From: Escherichia coli
GTDB lineage: Bacteria; Pseudomonadota; Gammaproteobacteria; Enterobacterales; Enterobacteriaceae
Reading direction: 5' to 3' (one strand)
Assembly: GCF_003334255.1 (NCBI RefSeq)
Contig: NZ_QOWU01000152.1
Length of the DNA: 1,703 nt
The number at the start of each line of letters is the position of its first letter. Within the stretch, counting starts at the first letter, position 1. A program made the translations under genes and the position numbers. The notes under the pieces are model-generated. The model was not told where the DNA came from, did not search any database, and saw only the letters and a list, made by a program, of their open reading frames with translations. Positions 1,547-1,703 of the stretch are shown here, piece after piece.

Positions 1547-1703
1547 GGAAACCGTCTGGGGAGAACCCCAGACCCCCATCGCTGTAACACCGACGGTCTA
1601 CGACCACCAACCAGCCGAATAGCAGCCAGTACCGTGCAAATAGGCATTGCAGGGAGCAGACGCGGTTCCTAGCGACCTGAAAGCCCCAGGATAGGGGTAT
1701 CGG
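1547..1703. repeat. Right copy of terminal direct repeat (runs to the window end; true extent unknown)
   Basis: Same alignment as the left copy. Carries A at 1624, 1628, 1646, 1658, 1688 and 1691 where the left copy has T. Consistent with wrap-around or a tandem copy of a 1546-bp unit. Confidence 0.95.

Follow-up and report, generated by a model that had tools for sequence, protein, structure and literature searches.

We analysed a window of 1,703 nt and observed that it comprises one complete unit of a small cryptic plasmid, followed by a second copy of the first 157 nt of that unit (Table 1). The first 1546 positions match four plasmid records of exactly 1546 bp at 1546 of 1546 bases (NZ_CP073928.1, CP048862.1, NZ_CP107133.1 and NZ_CP050363.1, from E. 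coli and Klebsiella hosts), and many further records are at least 99% identical. The matching plasmids are recorded in PLSDB/MOB-suite as circular, with the replicon type Col(MG828), and are typed as 'mobilizable'. Since bases 1-1546 are identical to deposited circular plasmids, the 157-nt repeat is the wrap-around of the circle. The window shares with the members of Col(MG828) a 100% identical unit and the same Rep protein, and only the terminal 80 nt of the contig differ from them.

The sole credible gene on the 1546-bp circle, as judged from the list of open reading frames and from Pfam, is rep. The plasmid type is among the commonest and most widespread of known small replicons, in E. coli and in general: its Rep protein occurs in 52,879 blocks of a public assembly collection, and for 48,690 of these the longest contig that carries it is shorter than 2 kb. 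No curated NCBIfam model names this widespread protein, and our comparison of Rep with NCBIfam returned no family above its cut-off. Upstream of rep lies a set of tandem and inverted 23-nt repeats. In the E. coli plasmid pKL1, rep is preceded by oriV, which includes inverted repeats as well as sites bound by Rep (PMC3832669). The window resembles pKL1-type plasmids in having inverted repeats at this place (PMC3832669), and by analogy the repeats at 774-821 are probably Rep-binding or oriV repeats. A further inverted repeat of 24 nt has its arms at 428-451 and 653-676, which are 96% complementary and 201 nt apart. The right arm falls within a 65-nt segment (617-681) that matches unrelated records of 5346 bp at 95.5%. 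We take this segment and its inverted repeat to resemble the bom (oriT) region of ColE1/pBR322; the plasmid lacks a relaxase gene, yet its MOB-suite type is mobilizable. A scan of the window for promoters and terminators gave nothing over the shuffle expectation, and an Rfam search gave nothing relevant, its one match being a chance miRNA hit (E = 0.87).

Table 1 Features of the 1,703-nt window and the basis for each assignment.
Feature	Position	Strand	Basis or remark
Complete circular Col(MG828)-type cryptic plasmid unit, 1546 bp	1..1546	+	100% identity to deposited plasmids
Direct repeat, 157 nt	1-157 and 1547-1703		Gap-free, period 1546 nt; repeat scan and base-by-base comparison
Exact overlap, left copy; putative de Bruijn vertex, k = 77	1..77	+	Identical to 1547-1623
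Strong G+C-rich hairpin, GTCTGGGG-AGAA-CCCCAGAC	8-27		Just upstream of the aberrant tract
Counterpart of the putative tip with the true alleles, non-coding	78..157	+	T at 78, 82, 100, 112, 142, 145
Putative ColE1-family oriT/bom-like segment	617..681	-	Inverted-repeat arm 653-676
Tandem and inverted 23-nt repeats upstream of rep	774..821	.	Repeat scan
rep, 158-aa helix-turn-helix replication protein	907..1383	+	ORF; identical to WP_000469298.1; Pfam PF13730 HTH_36
Exact 77-nt overlap, right copy	1547..1623	+	Identical to 1-77
80-nt dead-end extension (putative tip) with six T-to-A differences	1624..1703	+	Novel k-mers; database ceilings

Comparing the two copies of the repeat base by base, we found six mismatches, at 78/1624, 82/1628, 100/1646, 112/1658, 142/1688 and 145/1691. 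A previous reading of the DNA from sequence only (hereafter the sequence-only reading) had reported that the left copy has T and the right copy A at six of six sites, with no transition and no indel, and our comparison agrees with this. It had also noted that four of the six turn CTG into CAG, and these are the sites 78, 82, 112 and 142. A point that the sequence-only reading does not mention is that all six changes are confined to the final 80 nt of the 157-nt repeat. The two copies agree throughout their opening 77 nt, and only 12 nt of contig remain beyond the last change. If substitutions were uniform, six changes in the tract would all hit T and all lead to A with a probability of ~2e-7, which bears out the claim that the process is directional. 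Under the spectrum of the plasmid family, in which T-to-A accounts for 3 of 55 alternative alleles, the probability of six out of six is ~3e-8, and the differences are, as had also been claimed, not ordinary divergence. The sequence-only reading was right, too, that a plain wrap-around would give identical copies. The T-to-A pattern is correctly observed and far beyond chance. Its directionality is real, and its cause is fully explained by none of the models considered below.

Next to the window's own repeat, we examined public sequences for the two versions of the tract. Where the deposited circles continue past window position 1546, they have the T version. Because positions 1-1546 are 100% identical to these circles, the T alleles are real sequence and, judged by this identity, represent the true plasmid. 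When positions 1400-1703 were compared with PLSDB, the best match was 98.0% over 304 nt, which corresponds to exactly six mismatches, and none of the 677 matching records did better. Likewise, positions 1580-1703 reached a ceiling of 95.2% over 124 nt in 5426 complete E. coli genomes, again exactly six mismatches. Since both ceilings equal six mismatches, neither collection holds a record with even one of the A alleles in a matching background. A 49-nt pattern that allowed A or T at four of the sites occurred three times in two metagenome contigs, each time with T, and had no match in viral contigs or GTDB genomes. An exact look-up of seven ORF products that span the A alleles found none of them in a collection of 15 billion proteins.

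We also aligned 30 copies of the region; their sources were PLSDB relatives spanning 79-100% identity and further public contigs. Columns 100, 112 and 142 contain T only (with an alignment gap at 142 in one copy), column 78 has 29 T and 1 G, column 82 has 27 T, 2 A and 1 C, and column 145 has 25 T, 4 C and 1 gap. Variation within the family falls in 45 other columns of these 157 nt and consists of 32 transitions versus 23 transversions. By these comparisons, the A haplotype occurs nowhere but at this contig's end and is not a natural set of alleles. A phage collection held only diverged relatives, among them GenBank records named 'Escherichia phage' at 91-95% identity. OR844798.1 (1626 bp) and OR844749.1 (1423 bp) had 93-100% of the window matched, and OX638291.1 (1949 bp) only 51%; it is almost certain that at least the first two are contigs of plasmid DNA left in the phage preparations.

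The geometry of the contig end was characterized with k-mers. In a de Bruijn graph with k = 77, whose edges are 78-mers, the first novel edge begins at 1547, base one of the second copy. Whatever the value of k between 31 and 127, there are 80 novel k-mers, and they follow one another without interruption as far as the contig end. The length of the contig is accounted for as 1546 + 77 + 80 = 1703. An overlap of 77 nt equals a standard de Bruijn k, and the chance of coinciding with one of the six usual k values is ~4%; the assembler, presumably of this type, would have been run at k = 77. Sibling plasmids have been deposited with comparable ends. CP077360.1 retains an untrimmed exact terminal overlap of 77 nt (1628 nt = 1551 + 77), as does OR844798.1 (1626 nt = 1549 + 77), whose name NODE_34_length_1626_cov_9.41 is in the SPAdes naming format. 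In NZ_KX009020.1, labelled circular and complete at 1598 bp, an exact overlap of 52 nt was left on a unit of 1546 bp. Two longer siblings taken up as further comparanda, NZ_CP069986.1 and NZ_CP100550.1, turned out to be RepL-carrying relatives rather than cases of overlap and were set aside. The window is like a SPAdes-type circular contig with an untrimmed overlap of length k in that a known circular unit is followed by an exact 77 nt. It is unlike such a contig, and unlike a clean wrap-around, in that it runs 80 nt further along a path with six mismatches.

A true second set of alleles with usable coverage would rejoin the circle 77 nt past the last difference, giving a branch of 222 nt. Instead, the A branch stops 12 nt after its last change, which makes it a dead-end branch and not a closed bubble, and the stop looks like the end of a read or of a fragment. 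The window thus resembles an assembly-graph tip built from erroneous read ends, in which a novel run ends the contig without rejoining and carries alleles absent elsewhere. Typical tips differ from it in having mixed types of error and in being clipped, whereas this one is 80 nt long, unclipped and purely T-to-A.

We consider it likely that the window represents the circle plus an unclipped tip, the source of the tip being aberrant reads or a single aberrant library molecule. On this reading, an assembler of the short-read de Bruijn kind would have walked once round the 1546-bp Col(MG828) circle (1-1546) and then re-entered its starting 77-mer (1547-1623). That vertex would have had two exits, a loop with T at 78 that returns after 1546 nt and a dead end with A at 1624, and the assembler would have left by the dead-end side branch 1624-1703 and not by the true continuation. 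Behind the branch itself would stand one aberrant read, a few such reads or a single library molecule of this sort, with six T-to-A miscalls or misincorporations in the last ~80 bases. Most likely, all six differences are technical and reflect neither two alleles of the plasmid nor a mutagenesis system. Among the four causes proposed in the sequence-only reading, a sequencing or assembly artefact is the one that we retain, because the T copy is universal and the A copy is unique and sits on a dead end at the contig terminus. A multimer, collapsed population heterogeneity and adenine mutagenesis are disfavoured.

Default tip clipping in SPAdes should remove a tip of 80 nt. Its survival here may mean that another assembler was used or that the branch had more support than a single read. 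One 78-mer, 1614-1691, contains all six changes, and independent low-frequency errors can therefore not account for them. With reads of at most 150 nt and k = 77, one read could not supply all 80 words. Presumably, read length was 157 nt or more, or else the changes are common to two or more reads, which may be the two mates of one short fragment. Sharing of this kind would be less a sign of independent base-calling errors than of a real molecule, whether made in vitro or in vivo. We infer that the supporting reads were few, and the cause of the T-to-A direction is a matter of the same kind of reasoning.

To describe the direction of the changes, we compared the changed and unchanged T's of the tract. 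A T preceded by C was changed in 5 of 7 cases versus 1 of 11 for the other T's (Fisher p = 0.013); put the other way, 5 of the 6 changed T's follow a C versus 2 of the 12 unchanged ones (Fisher p = 0.013). In the CTG context, 4 of 5 T's were changed versus 2 of 13 others (Fisher p = 0.02), and of the T's preceded by two G/C bases 6 of 11 were changed versus 0 of 7 others (Fisher p = 0.025). In red/green two-colour imaging, phasing may let the red of a C carry over into the green of the T that follows, so that the T is read as A; this T-to-A-after-C mode is expected yet unseen in bulk data (PMC8002175). Phasing and end-repair errors build up at read ends (PMC10415152). Lag phasing in two-colour Illumina sequencing is the best partial candidate for the direction and fits five of the six sites. 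The changes lie 12-80 nt from the apparent 3' end of a read, which looks in keeping with this model. The window is like a two-colour phasing error in its T-to-A changes after C near the presumed 3' end of a read, and unlike it in that phasing predicts partner errors, which are absent from the tract (C-to-A after T 0/2, G-to-C after C 0/5), and in that a bulk survey failed to detect the mode (PMC8002175). Site 145, in the context GG[T], falls outside the model.

As an alternative to phasing, the minus strand of a single library fragment may have carried an A-specific lesion. On this alternative, a damaged A on one strand of one fragment or plasmid molecule would have been copied with A opposite A. 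Several further sources of error were rejected by reasoning on what each would produce. With two-colour chemistry, a polyclonal cluster or a constant red background would, from the dye schemes, give G-to-C and C-to-A changes, which are absent; four-colour cross-talk would confuse A with C and G with T, not T with A; the abasic-site 'A rule' would give C-to-A as well; and an excess of dATP at A-tailing would give G-to-A.

Hairpins in the template are known to provoke Illumina errors specific to one strand. The hairpin at 8-27 could be relevant to where the errors begin, and a second predicted hairpin lies inside the tract at ~75-112. The 150-nt region folds better than its shuffles (z = -2.5). 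With the A alleles, the TGCAAA/TTTGCA and AGCT stems of the second hairpin are broken, and the predicted stability drops from -26.4 to -22.4 kcal/mol. The changes do not compensate one another; on this account, both hairpin compensation and quasipalindrome template switching were rejected.

Another possibility is that the tract is real DNA. Minority plasmid molecules with a clustered, strand-specific hypermutated tract might have been caught as a side branch, the tract originating from damage by adenine adducts or from an error-prone repair patch, either of which could be the source; we regard this as unlikely. The changes are strictly of one type and their context is biased (CTG 4/5 versus 2/13, p = 0.02), the branch got past tip clipping, and six changes shared by two or more reads or by the mates of a pair, as reads of at most 150 nt at k = 77 would imply, suggest an actual DNA molecule. 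A-to-T at CAG is moreover a hallmark of bulky adenine adducts such as those of aristolochic acid (PMC4443665). Read on the minus strand, the window is like the aristolochic-acid signature (COSMIC SBS22) in that 6 of 6 changes are A-to-T and 4 of 6 are CAG to CTG, a preference (p = 0.02) that comes from a small sample and overlaps the test for a preceding C. The likeness is one of spectrum only: six changes in 68 nt on a bacterial plasmid without known exposure are unlike that signature, and this density exceeds chemical mutagenesis by orders of magnitude. In none of the public copies that we examined did the A alleles occur in a matching background, and three of the sites do not vary within the family. 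The branch breaks off 12 nt beyond the last change, whereas a replicating variant with usable coverage would rejoin the circle, and a fragment damaged in vitro would yield the same reads. It is more doubtful still that the A tract is cellular DNA that records an unrecognised strand-specific, adenine-targeted local hypermutation or error-prone patch repair on a small high-copy plasmid of Enterobacteriaceae; this quite improbable reading would require an 80-nt patch in which about one third of the minus-strand adenines became T, with CAG preferred.

The remaining explanations place the two versions on different molecules or loci. If the contig crossed the junction of a dimer or multimer whose units carry different alleles (heteroplasmy), the differences would be genuine, and small plasmids do form multimers. 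Tandem units are also present in larger public contigs: a 62-kb contig (L013, 2001-4477) has two rep genes 1551 nt apart, and a metagenome contig of 12,996 bp (L002, 1722-3543) has the 49-nt marker twice, 1433 nt apart. These tandem copies could be multimers, deletion variants or concatenations made in assembly. For the window, a heteroplasmic dimer is very unlikely, as phasing units that lie 1546 nt apart is beyond a short-read de Bruijn assembler, the dead end would be left unexplained, the geometry of the overlap is exactly k plus a tip, the second 'unit' is visible for only 157 nt before it ends, and the A alleles were not found elsewhere, whether in PLSDB or in 5426 complete E. coli genomes. 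The branch might, by contrast, enter a second, related plasmid in the same cell or sample, with ordinary divergence between homologous replicons. Several small plasmids per host are common, and Col(MG828) is diverse, with a 200-nt region ranging from 79% to 100% identity over 653 PLSDB records. Natural differences, however, are mostly transitions in other columns, T-to-A accounts for 3 of 55 alternative alleles so that six identical transversions carry the family-spectrum probability of ~3e-8, and for the A tract PLSDB and the 5426 complete E. coli genomes offer no better match than the T-allele plasmids. The chance of such a co-resident relative is slimmer again, and we consider this reading close to refuted. 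Finally, in a diversity-generating retroelement, a reverse transcriptase copies a template repeat into a variable repeat with adenine-directed changes, and the window has a superficial likeness to this in that its two repeats differ only where one has A. Such an element needs a reverse transcriptase, two loci and the replacement of adenines by any base. Here, the two 'copies' are one locus of one circle read twice, the circle encodes only the HTH_36 Rep, and a search of the ORFs, Pfam and NCBIfam for a reverse transcriptase on the 1546 bp found none. T is ancestral and hence the A copy is derived, all six changes lead to one and the same base instead of to various bases, and most adenines and thymines in the tract are unchanged. 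The adenine mutagenesis and reverse transcriptase raised in the sequence-only reading fail on these grounds (the Rep-only circle, the ancestral T and the single target base), and a retroelement, whose probability we put at next to nothing, is already refuted for this window.

The contig terminus is odd, but most probably not a new biological feature, and the changes are most probably not part of the plasmid. The window does show that a circular contig can carry a wrap-around that is longer than k and yet non-identical. Tools that recognise circularity by an exact terminal repeat would find only a 12-nt match at the extreme ends and miss the circle, and tools that seek adenine-specific differences between repeats could take such a contig for a mutagenesis system. 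If the run of T-to-A changes after C were reproducible in the reads, it would be a concrete case of the two-colour phasing error (PMC8002175).

Embedded copies of the 1.5-kb unit may hold more interest than the terminal T-to-A differences. The unit occurs inside large contigs or chromosomes at six loci (L004-L008 and L012, at ~1806-3350 of each locus). It lies inside lacZ in two independent assemblies (L005, BNIS01000001.1; L007, DAPKLC010000030.1), and in CP057778.1 (L006) it splits a gene of the TetR family in frame (PGTL|YHHF). No lacZ::plasmid junction was present in 5426 RefSeq complete E. coli genomes, and the embedded copies could be either true one-ended integrations or chimeric assemblies. 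The host flanks are contiguous around the embedded unit, with no target duplication visible. The left end of the unit is constant, at window position 716 ('ATAGATCTTTTACGCC' / 'ATAGATCTTTT') and at 711 in L004. The right end is variable and falls at window position 677, 699 or 703, such that 12-38 bp of the circle are missing.
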